A stretch of DNA of 64,000 nucleotides from Eledone cirrhosa (Eukaryota): contig OZ024742.1 in NCBI GenBank assembly GCA_964016885.1, positions 35,774,001 to 35,838,000 of the forward strand, in the 5' to 3' direction. Positions 1 to 48,486 of the stretch are shown one piece after another. The stretch's first letter is position 1. Each line of letters begins with the position of its first letter. Under the pieces are notes generated by a model. It made no database searches, was not told the DNA's origin, and saw only the letters and a program-made list of their open reading frames with translations. The translations under genes were made by a program, and so were the position numbers.

Positions 1-2127
1 AAAACCAGTATGACTCTAAAAACCGGTTTGTCTGTGTGTTTACATACAGAATAGCTGGCCACTCACAGTAAAGTGATCAGTGAAAAAAAAAAACTTGGTA
101 CATCTACATATGTATACGTGTGTGTATTCATATACATACTAGTATTTCAGTATACATATATGGATGTACATCTTTGACTTAATTGTTTGAGCGTCAGTCA
201 TACAAAAGTGAGTTACAAACGAAACGAAATTTAATTTCGTTTCGTTATTTGTTTTTATCGTCTCCGTTGAACCGGTACTTACTCACACTCTATGCAAGTT
301 GGTCTGCCCACTACTAATTTTCATAGAAAAAGCATATAGCGATATGTGCTTTTACGATTCTCTAGAGAGGCCGGAAGATAGGTAAATATTGCTGATGAGT
401 TGTAACAACAACGAAACTAGTTCAATATTCCTTGTCTGGCTTTCTGGAGAATAGAGGAAAGGTGTTTCCTCAAAAACCAGTATGACTCTAAAAACCGGTT
501 TGTCTGTGTGTTTACATACAGAATAGCTGGCCACTCACAGTAAAGTGATCAGTGAAAAAAAACTTGGTACATCTACATATGTATACGTGTGTGTATTCAT
601 ATACATACTAGTATTTCAGTATACATATATGGATGTACATCTTTGACTTAATTGTTTGAGCGTCAGTCATACAAAAGTGAGTTACAAACGAAACGAAATT
701 TAATTTCGTTTCGTTATTTGTTTTTATCGTCTCCGTTGAACCGGTACTTACTCACACTCTATGCAAGTTGGTCTGCCCACTACTAATTTTCATAGAAAAA
801 GCATATAGCGATATGTGCTTTTACGATTCTCTAGAGAGGCCGGAAGATAGGTAAATATTGCTGATGAGTTGTAACAACAACGAAACTAGTTCAATATTCC
901 TTGTCTGGCTTTCTGGAGAATAGAGGAAAGGTGTTTCCTCAAAAACCAGTATGACTCTAAAAACCGGTTTGTCTGTGTGTTTACATACAGAATAGCTGGC
1001 CACTCACAGTAAAGTGATCAGTGAAAAAAAACTTGGTACATCTACATATGTATACGTGTGTGTATTCATATACATACTAGTATTTCAGTATACATATATG
1101 GATGTACATCTTTGACTTAATTGTTTGAGCGTCAGTCATACAAAAGTGAGTTACAAACGAAACGAAATTTAATTTCGTTTCGTTATTTGTTTTTATCGTC
1201 TCCGTTGAACCGGTACTTACTCACACTCTATGCAAGTTGGTCTGCCCACTACTAATTTTCATAGAAAAAGCATATAGCGATATGTGCTTTTACGATTCTC
1301 TAGAGAGGCCGGAAGATAGGTAAATATTGCTGATGAGTTGTAACAACAACGAAACTAGTTCAATATTCCTTGTCTGGCTTTCTGGAGAATAGAGGAAAGG
1401 TGTTTCCTCAAAAACCAGTATGACTCTAAAAACCGGTTTGTCTGTGTGTTTACATACAGAATAGCTGGCCACTCACAGTAAAGTGATCAGTGAAAAAAAA
1501 CTTGGTACATCTACATATGTATACGTGTGTGTATTCATATACATACTAGTATTTCAGTATACATATATGGATGTACATCTTTGACTTAATTGTTTGAGCG
1601 TCAGTCATACAAAAGTGAGTTACAAACGAAACGAAATTTAATTTCGTTTCGTTATTTGTTTTTATCGTCTCCGTTGAACCGGTACTTACTCACACTCTAT
1701 GCAAGTTGGTCTGCCCACTACTAATTTTCATAGAAAAAGCATATAGCGATATGTGCTTTTACGATTCTCTAGAGAGGCCGGAAGATAGGTAAATATTGCT
1801 GATGAGTTGTAACAACAACGAAACTAGTTCAATATTCCTTGTCTGGCTTTCTGGAGAATAGAGGAAAGGTGTTTCCTCAAAAACCAGTATGACTCTAAAA
1901 ACCGGTTTGTCTGTGTGTTTACATACAGAATAGCTGGCCACTCACAGTAAAGTGATCAGTGAAAAAAAACTTGGTACATCTACATATGTATACGTGTGTG
2001 TATTCATATACATACTAGTATTTCAGTATACATATATGGATGTACATCTTTGACTTAATTGTTTGAGCGTCAGTCATACAAAAGTGAGTTACAAACGAAA
2101 CGAAATTTAATTTCGTTTCGTTATTTG

Positions 2128-2134
<7 letters not shown>
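1..2134 (+). mobile_element. Tandem array (~4.5 units, 469 bp) of a hammerhead-bearing retrozyme / PLE pLTR-like unit (family A); runs off the window start
   Basis: Near-identical units with period 469; one HHR per unit; ends in (TA)n. Confidence 0.9.
385..429 (+). ncRNA. Type I hammerhead ribozyme, family A (also 854-898, 1323-1367, 1792-1836)
   Basis: AAUAUUG-CUGAUGA-GUUG(UAACAA)CAAC-GAAA-CUAG-UU-CAAUAUU; 7-bp stem I, palindromic stem III. Confidence 0.9.
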
Positions 2135-10349: not shown

Positions 10350-12198
10350 AATTCCATATATGGTCAAAGTGATTGTCAAAAATCAGTAGTAATTCTGTGG
10401 TTGCAAATTAGTAGGGGAGATGGTGGCTAAACCTGCCAGTAGGAGAAAGAGGGGAGGGGGTGGAGTAGACCCAATCAAGCGTTGGTAGTGCCAGCTACAG
10501 CTGGGCATGAGGTCAAAGAAGATACAGGGGAGGGGGAGGGGGAGGAAGTCGGAACGGTAGGTAGAACAATGGGGGGTAAAAATAGGAAAGAAAAAATACT
10601 GAGAGTGAAGAAAAGCAAAAAAGTGTAAAGAAAAAATTAAATTCTACGACCTAGGTGTCAGGCTATTGTTAGGCGAGAATAAAATAAAGAAAGAAAGAAA
10701 GAAGTAAATAAATAAATAAATAAATAAATAAGGAAATAAGTAAAAGAACTAGGTGGGACGAATTAAGCAAGGACCCTTTTAAGAGGTATAAGTACGTAAA
10801 TGATACGGTGACTGGTCAACAAAAGGGGCCAAAATACTAAAGAGACTACCACGAAATAAACAATAAAGGTTTCCATCCCGGGCCAGCAACGACCCAGTGC
10901 AGCAAAGTGAACTTGTACGACATAATAATTCTGAGTCCCGGGAAAAATATATACTAATGCTAACTCTAAAAGATCTAAAACAAGCTACATGAAAGTTCGT
11001 ACGAAATAAAGGTAGAATACGGAGAAATAAGTTCAGAATCCACCCCGCCCAGAAGAAAAGCGAAGCAAGAAATACTGAAACGAAAAAATAAGGCATAAGT
11101 GCCACTAAGAAATAAAGAGGGCACAGAGAATAGTGGGAGCGGTCGGAAAAGGGGGGCAAGTATCCGGGGTCTAAGCCAACTGCTATAAAGGGCGGAGTCC
11201 GCCAAATCTATCAAAGACTAGGGGAGGGGGGAGTGGGGGTACTAAGGCTACATGGGGCCAAAGGGCAGCCTCGGGTGGGCGAGAAAAGACGCCGACAAAG
11301 GAGAAGTACCCCCACTCCCCCCTCCCCTAGTCTTTGATAGATTTGGCGGACTCCGCCCTTTATAGCTGTTGGCTTAGACCCCGGATACTTGCCCCCCTTT
11401 TCCGACCGCTCCCACTATTCTCTGTGCCCTCTTTATTTCTTAGTGGCACTTATGCCTTATTTTTTCGTTTCAGTATTTCTTGCTTCGCTTTTCTTCTGGG
11501 CGGGGTGGATTCTGAACTTATTTCTCCGTATTCTACCTTTATTTCGTACGAACTTTCATGTAGCTTGTTTTAGATCTTTTAGAGTTAGCATTAGTATATA
11601 TTTTTCCCGGGACTCAGAATTATTATGTCGTACAAGTTCACTTTGCTGCACTGGGTCGTTGCTGGCCCGGGATGGAAACCTTTATTGTTTATTTCGTGGT
11701 AGTCTCTTTAGTATTTTGGCCCCTTTTGTTGACCAGTCACCGTATCATTTACGTACTTATACCTCTTAAAAGGGTCCTTGCTTAATTCGTCCCACCTAGT
11801 TCTTTTACTTATTTCCTTATTTATTTATTTATTTATTTATTTACTTCTTTCTTTCTTTCTTTATTTTATTCTCGCCTAACAATAGCCTGACACCTAGGTC
11901 GTAGAATTTAATTTTTTCTTTACACTTTTTTGCTTTTCTTCACTCTCAGTATTTTTTCTTTCCTATTTTTACCCCCCATTGTTCTACCTACCGTTCCGAC
12001 TTCCTCCCCCTCCCCCTCCCCTGTATCTTCTTTGACCTCATGCCCAGCTGTAGCTGGCACTACCAACGCTTGATTGGGTCTACTCCACCCCCTCCCCTCT
12101 TTCTCCTACTGGCAGGTTTAGCCACCATCTCCCCTACTAATTTGCAACCACAGAATTACTACTGATTTTTGACAATCACTTTGACCATATATGGAATT

Positions 12199-12375: not shown

Positions 12376-13435
12376 ATAGAGAGAGAGAGAGGGGGGGGAG
12401 ATAGAGACAGACAGATAGTATTAACATATGTAATATACGAACCATCATAAAAAAATCTAATGTAAAATAAGTATATACTTTGTGGAAGAAGCATATCTAC
12501 ATGTACCATGGACAAATTCAAATCTCTGGCAAATATAGTTGGATTAGTTCATTCGCTTTAAATACTTATTTATTTTTGTCACGCCAGTAAACGACATTGC
12601 TGCTTAACGACCGCTCACACTTACGACCAGACATTTTCTATGTGCACATAATTATGATATGACTAGTTTTCATTTTTTATGTAATTTTTTTGTTACATAT
12701 TTTTGTATGTTTTTATCCAACGAAACCTTTCCCTATGTTTCAATATACATTTTTTTTTTTAGATATTTAATGAATTTCGTTATTCAGATACTTTAGTATA
12801 AAACTGATATTTACTAATTTTCCATACATTCATGAACTCTCTCATCTGGCTCATAGCATCGAAACAATATCTGAAGATATTCTATGATAAGGAAATGTTC
12901 TTTACGACTATGTAGGTAGAATGAATGCTGAACGGTAAGTGGGGAGTGGCTGTATATAGAATAAAGTTTAAATTGAATCTACTACAAACAATAGTCAGTA
13001 TCGTCTGTCTCAGTGAAATTAGTACGGCTGTTATATGGGAGTGGTCGGTGACATTTTCATTATAGTAATGACATAGCACTTAACATTAAGTAATAGTAGT
13101 ACAAAGAGAAAAGATTATCTTTAAAGTAATCTTAACAAAAGATGAGGGGTGCCATAGTACATGCTCACTTGACATGCATGAAATAGCAGCCAAATCTCCC
13201 TCAAATTTCCTCCTCACCATCTTCAATAAGGCGAAGACGTATAAGATAACATTGGTTTTTCATATAACTTTATTATAGTTATGATTAGCTTCCTATTTAG
13301 GACAGAGACCACAGCTTTTGGACCCCTATCCTATTACTTTTTTCTTTCTTTTCTTTCGTCCTTCTATCTGTGCTGGTTGTCTTATCACACACACACACAC
13401 ACATCATACCACCAGAAATATTTATTTTCTGCTGC

Positions 13436-13511
13436 CGATCCAACATTTTAAAATGGTACTCTCAATTAAATCGTGCGCAACCCTTTTGCTGGTTTGAGAG
13501 CTGATGAGTGC
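13436..13511 (+). ncRNA. Degenerate rearranged (non-circularly permuted) hammerhead candidate
   Basis: CGAU/AUCG, AAAAUGGU/ACCCUUUU and CUCUCAA/UUGAGAG-CUGAUGA; GAAA reads GCAA. Confidence 0.5.
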
Positions 13512-14613
13512 GAAGATGCATGTGTGTTAACTTGTCTTGTACATCGCCTTTCTTTATTTCCTGATGAATTATAAAATACATAGAAACGTATTATACTGGA
13601 TATTAATACAGTACATATTACACAATATAGTATTTAGTATTACCATATACTATAACATCTACAATATATTCCGATCTACTACACAATAAATTGAGACGTA
13701 TTAAACGTATACACCATATTGAATTTTGTGACGTATACAGTGTTGTGACATATACACTATATTGTCGCTTAATATATAATATATGACATATATAATATAT
13801 TGATATATACTACAAAAATTGGGTAGCGAATTTGGAGAGTGGTTAGAGCCTTGAATAGAATTCTGTGCGATTGTCGTTTCGTCTCTTGGTGGTCTGTGTT
13901 CAAATCCCACCGCGGCTAAAATTGTTTTTCATCTTTTCGGTGTTGATAACTAACGTACCAGTCCTGTATATCCCATTCTCTCTCTTTCTCTGCAATATAT
14001 CGACTATATTTAGACCTGGTGTGGGATGAGCTCCACCAGGTTTAAATGCGTCTCTCACGACTGTGCACCTCTGACGCCATTATGAGTTAACGGCCCATGG
14101 ATTATACAACATTAAACAATATTCTGAGACCATTTGAAGATACGTCCCTCTATTAATGCTACCAGACTCAGAGACGCTGAAAAGGCTCATGAGCACCACC
14201 TTTCTCTTCCTGAATAAACAATAAAAATACGTTTAAAAAGTAAATAAGAATAGAAAAAATGCAGTGTATGATTCCTGTTATAAAATGTCTGATTTAATAA
14301 AACCAGAATAACTTTTGGTAACTTTGCACTTTTTCCTGTTCTCCTTCCTCTCTGCTATAATTTTGTCATTTATTGATCTGAGGGCTGTTGTTTAACAAAC
14401 AGGAAACTACACGATTTATGACAGTAGATGGCGTTGTTTGCACTATTTCTCTCACATTATTACACTACATATATGGTTATTGACAGATTCAACTGTTCAA
14501 TGTAATAAATCTCTGCTTTATATTTTGCCGAATATTGTGCAATTAGATACTGCAAAATTGTACAATGCTCTCTCATATAAACAAAATAATAATTAACAAC
14601 AAAAGAAAACAAA

Positions 14614-17989: not shown

Positions 17990-18522
17990 ATGTTTTTTAT
18001 ACATATTTACCTCGACTGCGATTGTCTGTTTCTCTCTTTCTGCTCCCCCGTTCTCTCTGTTTCTCTCATCTTCTTTCGCCCCCTCTGTCAGTTACACTTT
18101 CTCTCGACTGACCTCTTCCTCGCACTTCCTCTCACTCACTCTCTGTTTCTCCCCTTCTCACTTCCTCCCGTTCGTTAGAAGTGGGATTCTTTCTTTCTCA
18201 CATCTCATTCACGTCGGATGGTCTGTTTTCTGATCGCTCATGAAATTCACCCAGATTATGCTGATCGGATAACTATCATGTTGCTTGCTTTTTTCCTACC
18301 TTCGGTTTGCTTTTCCTTCTATGTTGTTTACTTGTCTCACTCGCTTTACGTGATTCACTTGTCCCAATAGCTTATTTTAGTTATTGCTCGCACCAACCTG
18401 AGGTATATGATTTTTAATGCGATGAAATACCAATGATGGTTGGCAAATCACTGATGAGGGACTAATTTTATAATATGTAACCCATGTGCAACCACGCAGT
18501 TTTCCTCTTTCTTCCCATGTTT
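17990..18522 (+). mobile_element. Non-coding module carrying a rearranged hammerhead (family M)
   Basis: Homologous to 24073-24639 (-); (TA)n flanks. Confidence 0.7.
18361..18462 (+). ncRNA. Non-circularly permuted, pseudoknotted hammerhead candidate with kink-turn
   Basis: GGUAU-A-UGAUU ... GAAAUACC ... AAUCA-CUGAUGA; helices covary with 24101-24202. Confidence 0.75.
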
Positions 18523-18541
18523 TATATATATATATATATAT

Positions 18542-20863
<2,322 letters not shown>

Positions 20864-24072: not shown

Positions 24073-24636
24073 GAATAAAAATAGACCGAGAAACAAGACT
24101 GTCCTTCATCAGTAGCCTGCGGATTATCATTGGTATTTCTTCGCATTAAAGACTAGATACCTAAAGTCAGTGCGAGCGATAACTAAATTAAGTTATCGGG
24201 ACAGAGGAAAACAGAGGAAAGGAAACAAACAACATGGTAGTAATGCAACGTAAAGAGAGGAAAAGAGAGACAAGTCAATGAATATTGTGGGCTTAAGTCC
24301 GACAAATCAAATGATGAGAAGAAACAGACACGTCCGAGCCACGAGAAAAGTGAGAGAGGAAAGAAATTCACGCAGGTCAGACGGGAAGAAGTGAGAGAGG
24401 AGGAGTAGCAGAGAGTGAGTGAAAGTGTGAGGAAGGGGCCAGCCGAGAGTGGAGGAAAGCAAGAGGTGAAGGAGATAGAAGGGAGAGAGAGAAAGAGGAT
24501 AGCAGTAAGGTGAAAGAAAAAATACGAACCACAGCGAAGGGAAACAATATATGTGAATGAAAAATGACGTGCTGCGTTGTTGCGAATATGAACATATGAA
24601 TAAAAATAGACCGAGAAACAAGAAGGTCCATCATCA

Positions 24637-26196: not shown

Positions 26197-27167
<971 letters not shown>

Positions 27168-46690: not shown

Positions 46691-48486
46691 ATAAAAACAA
46701 ATAACGAAACGAAATTAAATTTCGTTTCGTTTGTAACTCACTTTTGTATGACTGACGCTTAAACAATTAAGTCAAAAATGTACATCCACATATGTATACT
46801 GAAATACTAGTATGCATATGAATACACATACGTATACATATGTAGATGTACCGAGTTTTTCACTGGTCACTTTACTGTGAGTGTCCAGCTATTCTGTATG
46901 TAAACACACAGACAAACCGGTTTTTAGAGTCATACTGGTTTTTGAGGAAACACCTTTCCTCTATTCACCAGAAAGCCAGACAAGGAATATTGAACTAGTT
47001 TCGATGTTGTTACATCTCATCAGCAATATTTACCTATCTTCCGGCCTCTCTAGAGAGTCGTAAAAGCACATATCGTTATATGCTTTTTCTATGAAAATTA
47101 GTAGTGGGCAGACCAATTTGCATAGAGCGTGAGTACGTACCGGTTCAACCGAGACGATAAAAACAAATAACGAAACGAAATTAAATTTCGTTTCGTTTGT
47201 AACTCACTTTTGTATGACTGACGCTTAAACAATTAAGTCAAAAATGTACATCCACATATGTATACTGAAATACTAGTATGCATATGAATACACATACGTA
47301 TACATATGTAGATGTACCGAGTTTTTCACTGGTCACTTTACTGTGAGTGTCCAGCTATTCTGTATGTAAACACACAGACAAACCGGTTTTTAGAGTCATA
47401 CTGGTTTTTGAGGAAACACCTTTCCTCTATTCACCAGAAAGCCAGACAAGGAATATTGAACTAGTTTCGATGTTGTTACATCTCATCAGCAATATTTACC
47501 TATCTTCCGGCCTCTCTAGAGAATCGTAAAAGCACATATCGTTATATGCTTTTTCTATGAAAATTAGTAGTGGGCAGACCAATTTGCATAGAGCGTGAGT
47601 ACGTACCGGTTCAACGGAGACGATAAAAACAAATAACGAAACGAAATTAAATTTCGTTTCGTTTGTAACTCACTTTTGTATGACTGACGCTTAAACAATT
47701 AAGTCAAAAATGTACATCCACATATGTATACTGAAATACTAGTATGCATATGAATACACATACGTATACATATGTAGATGTACCGAGTTTTTCACTGGTC
47801 ACTTTACTGTGAGTGTCCAGCTATTCTGTATGTAAACACACAGACAAACCGGTTTTTAGAGTCATACTGGTTTTTGAGGAAACACCTTTCCTCTATTCTC
47901 CAGAAAGCCAGACAAGGAATATTGAACTAGTTTCGATGTTGTTACATCTCATCAGCAATATTTACCTATCTTCCGGCCTCTCTAGAGAATCGTAAAAGCA
48001 CATATCGTTATATGCTTTTTCTATGAAAATTAGTAGTGGGCAGACCAATTTGCATAGAGCGTGATTTAATTTCGTTTCGTTATTTGTTTTTATCGTCTCC
48101 GTTGAACCGGTACGTACTCACGCTCTATGCAAATTGGTCTGCCCACTACTAATTTTCATAGAAAAAGCATATAACGATATGTGCTTTTACGATTCTCTAG
48201 AGAGGCCGGAAGATAGGTAAATATTGCTGATGAGATGTAACAACATCGAAACTAGTTCAATATTCCTTGTCTGGCTTTCTGGAGAATAGAGGAAAGGTGT
48301 TTCCTCAAAAACCAGTATGACTCTAAAAACCGGTTTGTCTGTGTGTTTACATACAGAATAGCTGGACACTCACAGTAAAGTGACCAGTGAAAAACTCGGT
48401 ACATCTACATATGTATACGTATGTGTATTCATATGCATACTAGTATTTCAGTATACATATGTGGATGTACATTTTTGACTTAATTG

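Follow-up and report, generated by a model that had tools for sequence, protein, structure and literature searches.

Locus and question

Positions 13436-13511 (+) of a stretch of the Eledone cirrhosa genome raise the question of whether a hammerhead ribozyme with rearranged strands is encoded there and, if so, whether this copy still cuts. The stretch analyzed, referred to as the window, comprises 64,000 nt of the ~3-Gb genome (assembly GCA_964016885.1, contig OZ024742.1, positions 35,774,001 to 35,838,000, forward strand). The locus is read here, with a probability of roughly three in four, as a copy, now mutated, of family X, an old non-coding repeat whose members carry a predicted non-circularly permuted hammerhead that likely comes from the 3' end of a Naiad element; the window copy itself likely no longer cuts.

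A direct sequence check located every segment listed in the initial annotation (Table 1), including a stem I that pairs at 7/7 positions. The core CUGAnGA/GAAA/UH is not intact in the window copy, as GAAA was correctly reported to read GCAA. The blocks run in the order cleavage block, GAAA block, CUGAUGA block (S, G, C), not in the cyclic order C, G, S of types I, II, and III. By analogy with other hammerheads, a cut would be predicted between 13458 and 13459.

The earlier parse needed three changes. Its strands stood, but its helix II 3' strand was too short: the full strand is AUCGUGC, which in intact copies pairs at 7/7 positions with a GCACGAU further upstream, and the window copy lacks the A of this GCACGAU. 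The strands CCA(G/A)CA and UGCUGG were real, but the role given to them was not, since they form a separate helix, the I-II interaction helix. The interval 13436-13511 belongs to the motif but does not cover all of it, as an upstream hairpin and a closing stem are also part of it.

Table 1. Features of the family X copy and of two further elements with the same layout (window positions)
Feature	Positions	Strand	Basis or remark
Partial copy of repeat family X	13244..13562	+	BLAST extent against 29 other copies
Closing stem P0, 5' strand	13396..13409	+	Predicted partner is the tail after CUGAUGA; duplex energies
Side hairpin, P0 to helix II	13410..13434	+	Fold energies; weakened in window copy
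Helix II, displaced 5' strand	13434..13439	+	7 nt in family; one base absent from window copy
CGAU	13436-39	+	IIa of the initial annotation; present
I-II interaction helix, 5' strand	13440..13445	+	Partner 13487-13492
U-rich bulge	13446..13449	+	Occupies the place of the kink-turn signature of M-type families
Block S: helix III strand, UA site, helix I strand	13450..13465	+	Sequence check
AAAAUGG	13450-56	+	Helix III strand; present
UA	13457-58	+	Site dinucleotide; present
CUCUCAA	13459-65	+	Helix I strand; present
UUAA	13466-69	+	Linker between helices I and II
Block G: helix II 3' strand, GCAA (A13 to C at 13478), helix III strand	13470..13487	+	
AUCGUGC	13470-76	+	Whole 3' strand of helix II
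GCAA	13477-80	+	GAAA position of core
CCCUUUU	13481-87	+	Helix III strand; present
I-II interaction helix, 3' strand	13487..13492	+	Pairing counts
Block C minus its helix II strand: helix I strand and CUGAUGA	13494..13507	+	
UUGAGAG	13494-13500	+	Helix I strand; present
CUGAUGA	13501-07	+	Core block; present
Tail: G10.1, then P0 3' strand	13508..13527	+	Alignment and duplex energies
Family M1, same layout	18360..18462	+	Intact core, kink-turn signature; pattern match at 18451
Family M2, same layout	24101..24203	-	Pattern match at 24112 (-)

Standard searches gave little at this place. No Rfam hammerhead match fell at 13436-13511 among the 150 matches listed, while type I-like matches were found elsewhere in the window. 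Folded alone, the 76 nt were nothing special (z -0.29; nested fold, pseudoknots ignored), as expected because the helices cross. In the window, a four-helix descriptor built around the core matched at 13501 and 18451. Among 300 resampled windows it had one match, a rate that is optimistic because the descriptor was tuned after the families had been seen; it missed the decayed copy at 24112 (-).

Family X and the state of the window copy

Family X has at least 1150 first-look candidates genome-wide, and the best 39 others are 86-90% identical to the window stretch. For a better-preserved copy, the best non-self identity was 93% among 40 scored copies, and none of the pairs scored was nearly identical. 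Copies deviate from the majority sequence by ~2-6%, to a like degree in core, helices, and flanks. The lack of relatives above 93% and the evenness of this deviation make the family look old, extinct, and neutrally decaying. Within family X, pairing is present and decay was seen, with no covariation; all covariation reported below comes from the M-type families.

The annotation had proposed checking whether homologues restore GAAA, and they do. Position 13478 is A in 29/30 aligned copies (and 13483 is A in 28/30). An exact-flank pattern found 29 copies genome-wide, 26 with GAAA and one each with GGAA, GTAA, and GCAA, the last being the window locus only. Sequencing contigs from three runs of one sample had A at 13478 at ~99% depth; these contigs do not span the window copy. 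All three core parts are kept in 17/30 copies, so that, together with the 26/29 GAAA copies, the core is intact at the level of the family. Helices II and III, the other features put forward for checking, are likewise kept among homologues.

In the window copy, pairing amounts to 7/7 in helix I, 4/7 in helix II, 5/6 in the I-II helix, and 6/7 in helix III. A13 belongs to the consensus core used by Perreault 2011, and its replacement together with the mismatches in helix II, the I-II helix, and helix III makes it likely that this copy is dead, in agreement with the original suspicion. The hammerhead literature searched contained no mention of an A13C substitution.

In seven X loci, the sequence 3' of the motif is found again upstream, 512-564 nt away, so the X copies are pieces of a head-to-tail unit of ~545 nt (range ~520-560 nt), and partial head-to-tail copies occur at other loci. 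X copies often end in microsatellites; the window copy does not.

Strand order in intact copies

From 5' to 3', an intact X copy contains the P0 strand, a hairpin, the helix II 5' strand, an I-II strand, the U-rich bulge, a helix III strand, and UA; then a helix I strand, UUAA, the helix II 3' strand, GAAA, a helix III strand, and an I-II strand; and finally a helix I strand, CUGAUGA, and a tail that is the other P0 strand. The helix II 5' strand is thus placed upstream of the cleavage block instead of after CUGAUGA, and the extra stem and hairpin close the gap. The initial annotation missed both that the block order is that of a published class (type SGC) and that the displaced helix II strand is the new feature.

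The P0 duplex was calculated at -14.9 kcal/mol in the window copy and at -13.3 to -23.1 kcal/mol in six other X copies. The side hairpin is weaker in the window copy (-5.2 kcal/mol) than in 4/6 of the other copies (-10.0 to -10.7 kcal/mol). The I-II helix pairs 6/6 in most X copies.

Related families and covariation

The layout is predicted in many repeat families of the E. cirrhosa genome, which bears out the earlier view that the topology is a class with several families. Family X had been described as unrelated in sequence to a "family M", probably our M1, and indeed an X copy gave no BLAST match to either of the two M-type elements in the window. The UUAA linker, described as common to both, is invariant in 22/22 M-type representatives, rows that were partly selected on the linker. 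M1 is very young (1708 candidates, best 40 at 99-100% identity) and M2 moderately young (1495 candidates, best others at 94-97%). Copies of both terminate in (TA)n and have variable 5' ends. M-type arrays have a head-to-tail spacing of 445-706 nt with one predicted ribozyme per unit; units overall are head-to-tail at ~0.5-0.7 kb, with the X tandems partial.

A loose S/UUAA/G/C pattern had 20,964 matches genome-wide, compared with 167 for a reversed control. Helices I and III together paired at ≥9/10 positions in 24 of the first 30 genomic loci; with a similar pattern in viral contigs, this was the case in 0/80 among the matches listed. Two older families have the same 70-nt spacing and P0 without the side hairpin. 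Older split-layout families without the side hairpin (L143-L182) carry a G10.1-C11.1 pair and possibly form a simpler junction.

For covariation, 117 distinct cores were chosen on core and linker letters alone, and 103 were kept after 14 had been dropped by eye (junctions, truncations, indel shifts, or one chance match). By MI-APC on the 103 cores, the top three pairs all fell in the I-II helix, and 10 of the top 25 were predicted pairs. In 22 representatives, picked by hand from related rows partly selected on core and linker letters, 91.1% of cells pair, compared with 24-45% in slid controls; 16/21 pairs vary on both sides, a count matched by 49/500 shuffles. For the I-II helix, 94.7% of cells are paired and 5/6 pairs vary on both sides. 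At the DNA level, the four predicted helices covary across subfamilies. P0 has a few compensated variants among M-type cores, and the 10.1-11.1 pair is poorly kept there (70/103).

A kink-turn consists of tandem G-A/A-G pairs beside a 3-nt bulge. In the loop that separates helix III from the I-II helix in the 103 M-type cores, position 1b is G in 97, 2b is A in 99, and 1n is A in 100; the fourth position, 2n, is G in 63 and U in 38. Kink-turn pairs were not found in family X, where a U-rich bulge of 4-5 nt is present instead and one strand passes from helix III to the I-II helix without a linker. This kink-turn-free bulge is the main addition of the present finding.

Proposed mechanism and alternative readings

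In the proposed mechanism, the tail after CUGAUGA would pair with the leader as P0, and P0 and the side hairpin would create a four-way junction, docking the displaced strand on helix II beside the A9-G12 pair. Helices I and II would lie side by side, kept there by UUAA and the I-II helix, while a sharp bend (the kink-turn of M-type families, the U-rich bulge of X) would fold the I-II helix back to the end of helix III. Cutting after UA may convert tandem transcripts to unit-length RNAs, which may circularize and be copied back in trans by a Penelope-type reverse transcriptase and endonuclease, mostly at microsatellites.

A single molecule may be unable to fold into such a closed ring of helices, and X, having no kink-turn, would be the least able; the core could then be catalytic only across two units, as a dimer or head-to-tail. 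Units do occur in tandem, and the available text of PMC7229834 documents animal retrozymes whose hammerheads perform better in dimeric form. In that of Eckert 2023 (PMC10085705), the connection from the I-II helix to helix III is described as not obviously compatible with a crystal structure, and the X strand joins these two helices without a linker. The same source nevertheless reports that single SGC and CSG constructs cleave co-transcriptionally, and the conserved M-type kink-turn signature offers a bend within one molecule, so a dimer requirement is considered unlikely.

Somewhat more doubtful still is that the fold is a non-cutting RNA signal, such as a handle for the Penelope enzyme, and that the core letters are a relic. 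The evidence is all from DNA sequence and does not concern activity, the M2 pair adjoining the core is often mismatched, and many Naiads have spread without the motif. Yet U16, A13-A15, and CUGAnGA are invariant across the 22 representatives of subfamilies whose helices are wholly changed (rows partly selected on these letters), and the cleavage site is UA or UC in 22/22.

The choice of helix II partner concerns the split layout itself. In two intact X copies (L006/L007), the duplex energy with the helix II 3' strand is -9.1/-11.2 kcal/mol for the upstream strand and only -1.0/-1.8 for the tail, while the tail-leader duplex reaches -23.1/-21.5 kcal/mol. The window copy is exceptional, at -7.4 for the tail and -6.4 kcal/mol for the upstream strand; an upstream base has been lost, and two substitutions in the tail allow 6/6 pairing (two G-U). 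An uninterrupted block C, with the helix II strand directly after CUGAnGA, is thus permitted by the decayed window copy only. The least credible alternative, an ordinary type-SGC hammerhead in which the bases directly 3' of CUGAUGA form helix II and the upstream match is incidental, can draw on this copy and on tail pairing at 4-6/6 positions (G-U counted) in most X copies, but conflicts with the intact copies, with the 103 M-type cores (tail pairs 2-4 form in 7, 14, and 14 rows, compared with 71-99 for the upstream strand), and with the rarity of the two tail bases (3/30 and 2/30 X copies).

Comparison with known hammerheads and retrozymes

The available text of Eckert 2023 (PMC10085705) defines the non-circular permutations SGC, CSG, and GCS, describes a I-II helix, a short helix I-II linker ('typically three'), and a connection from the I-II helix to helix III, and reports in vitro cleavage for SGC and CSG at rates of 0.004-0.19 per minute. 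In the same text, blocks are assumed never to be interrupted, and no SGC is reported to have been found in the genomes of known organisms. The family X element resembles the type-SGC examples there (HRIMA-1 and a variant) in its S, G, C order, short I-II linker (here the 4-nt UUAA), conserved core, and extra helix that connects the distal ends of helices I and II. It differs in that block C is split, with CUGAUGA separated from helix II by an additional stem and hairpin, in that both strands of the I-II helix are tied to helix III, and in its occurrence in an animal genome at ~20,000 or more copies by pattern. The predicted X element is thus SGC-like in its working, but its block C is not intact. 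With type CSG of that source it shares the cyclic order, as the order would become C, S, G if P0 closed round the remainder of a circular unit, but its open ends are located in a branch from helix II and not before block C.

The block order itself is already published, in the available text of PMC10085705; the predicted split-C hammerhead is a new form within the non-circularly permuted class. The split layout in an animal genome was not found in the openly accessible papers searched; PMC13725137 mentions hammerhead variants 'with additional helices', which may bear on priority.

Non-LTR retrozymes have type I hammerheads in 150-450 bp units in the available text of Cervera and de la Pena 2020 (PMC7229834), and animal non-LTR retrozymes are likewise treated in that of Li et al. 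2026 (bioRxiv 10.64898/2026.07.22.740005). As far as these texts go, they share with the present families short head-to-tail units, one hammerhead each, and a proposed ride on Penelope-like elements; here the hammerhead is permuted instead of type I, and the units are ~500-700 bp.

Relation to Naiads and Penelope-like elements

In the available parts of Craig 2021 (PMC8557442), Naiads are without canonical hammerheads, eight are marked 'HHR_half_core', cephalopod Naiads are described as long dead, and the ribozyme fold is not recognized. Naiad layouts were parsed by eye only from the supplement, and family names were taken from the following header or the sheet order. Of the 62 CTGATGA places, 58 were viewed. 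The 19 in the Naiad file comprised seven with the split layout, one probable (Beroe), two intact CSG (nematodes), two ambiguous, and seven with none; among 11 further Naiad 3' ends, two had the layout, one was ambiguous, and eight (five bivalves and three others) were without it. Consensus 3' ends with the layout by eye were from Acropora (3), Pomphorhynchus, Morbakka-2, one arthropod-section family, and Octopus (two). The newly parsed Morbakka-2 end has an X-like bulge and UUAA, and the two Octopus ends match M1 in linkers and hairpin loop. By eye, therefore, eight or nine published Naiad consensus sequences appear to end in the split layout. Further likenesses to the Naiads as described in the available source are (TA)n targeting, found for M1 and M2 and not for the window copy, and partial tandem and inverted copies; X and M copies differ in having no attached ORF in the loci examined and in their helix sequences. 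Naiad ancestry of the fold is considered quite likely.

No Naiad-type ORF (N-terminal GIY-YIG, C-terminal RT) was found in 50 of 10,596 GIY-YIG candidate loci or beside 227 motif matches, with a query that was not a Naiad protein, and the GIY-YIG elements that could be placed had a C-terminal endonuclease. A Naiad-type ribozyme pattern had 0 matches in the E. cirrhosa genome; another such pattern had two, which read as M8-like. Around Penelope ORFs, the motif was present in 3/20 ten-kb loci, none clearly at element ends, with a loose match in L192 and one in L247. At L255:5200-7950, a 5'-truncated Penelope-type element (C-terminal endonuclease) is fused head-to-head with a permuted-hammerhead unit, with an apparent 11-nt common stretch where the two meet. 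This one fusion is a single hint that Penelope elements with a C-terminal endonuclease may copy permuted-hammerhead RNAs in trans.

A 3.3-kb tandem holding M1 was considered as an autonomous element and rejected as a duplicated mixed block; in this duplication (L061/L062), an M1 copy adjoins a non-LTR retroelement fragment. L233 and L235 contain Penelope-type open frames (938 and 1096 aa) in which GIY-YIG is C-terminal; the L233 family may lack a hammerhead, as no CUGAnGA lies within 4.2 kb. In the available supplement of PMC8557442, a different motif, G+C-rich and lacking CUGAUGA, is conserved at the 3' ends of four of the five bivalve Naiads; it may be another structured RNA.

On balance, we lean towards a wider proposal: that animals, from ctenophores or cnidarians to molluscs and arthropods, carry an active four-block hammerhead with its ends branching off helix II and its bend made by bulge or kink-turn, and that this is the ribozyme Naiads seemed to lack and the founder of a retrozyme class. 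If true, the scheme of six hammerhead permutations would be extended, non-circular permutations would be placed in animal genomes at high copy number, the apparent absence of a ribozyme in Naiads would be explained, and a large share of animal ribozymes would escape standard descriptor and Rfam searches. The window copy adds a second, kink-turn-free family and a natural negative control.

Other features of the window

Ordinary retrozyme-like tandem arrays with units of 469 and 466 bp occupy window positions 1-2134 and 46691-48280; each unit has a type I-like Rfam HH9 match below the gathering score, and an inverted copy lies at 48209. Type I hammerhead-like motifs also occur in dispersed repeats at 19014 (+), 20509 (+), 19989 (-), and 49155 (+). 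Minimal type I motifs at 26936 (+) and 32973 (-) match, by eye, Penelope-type element ends in L236/L237 and L255. Positions 11162-11386 form a long near-perfect inverted repeat of ~225 bp that is MITE-like.
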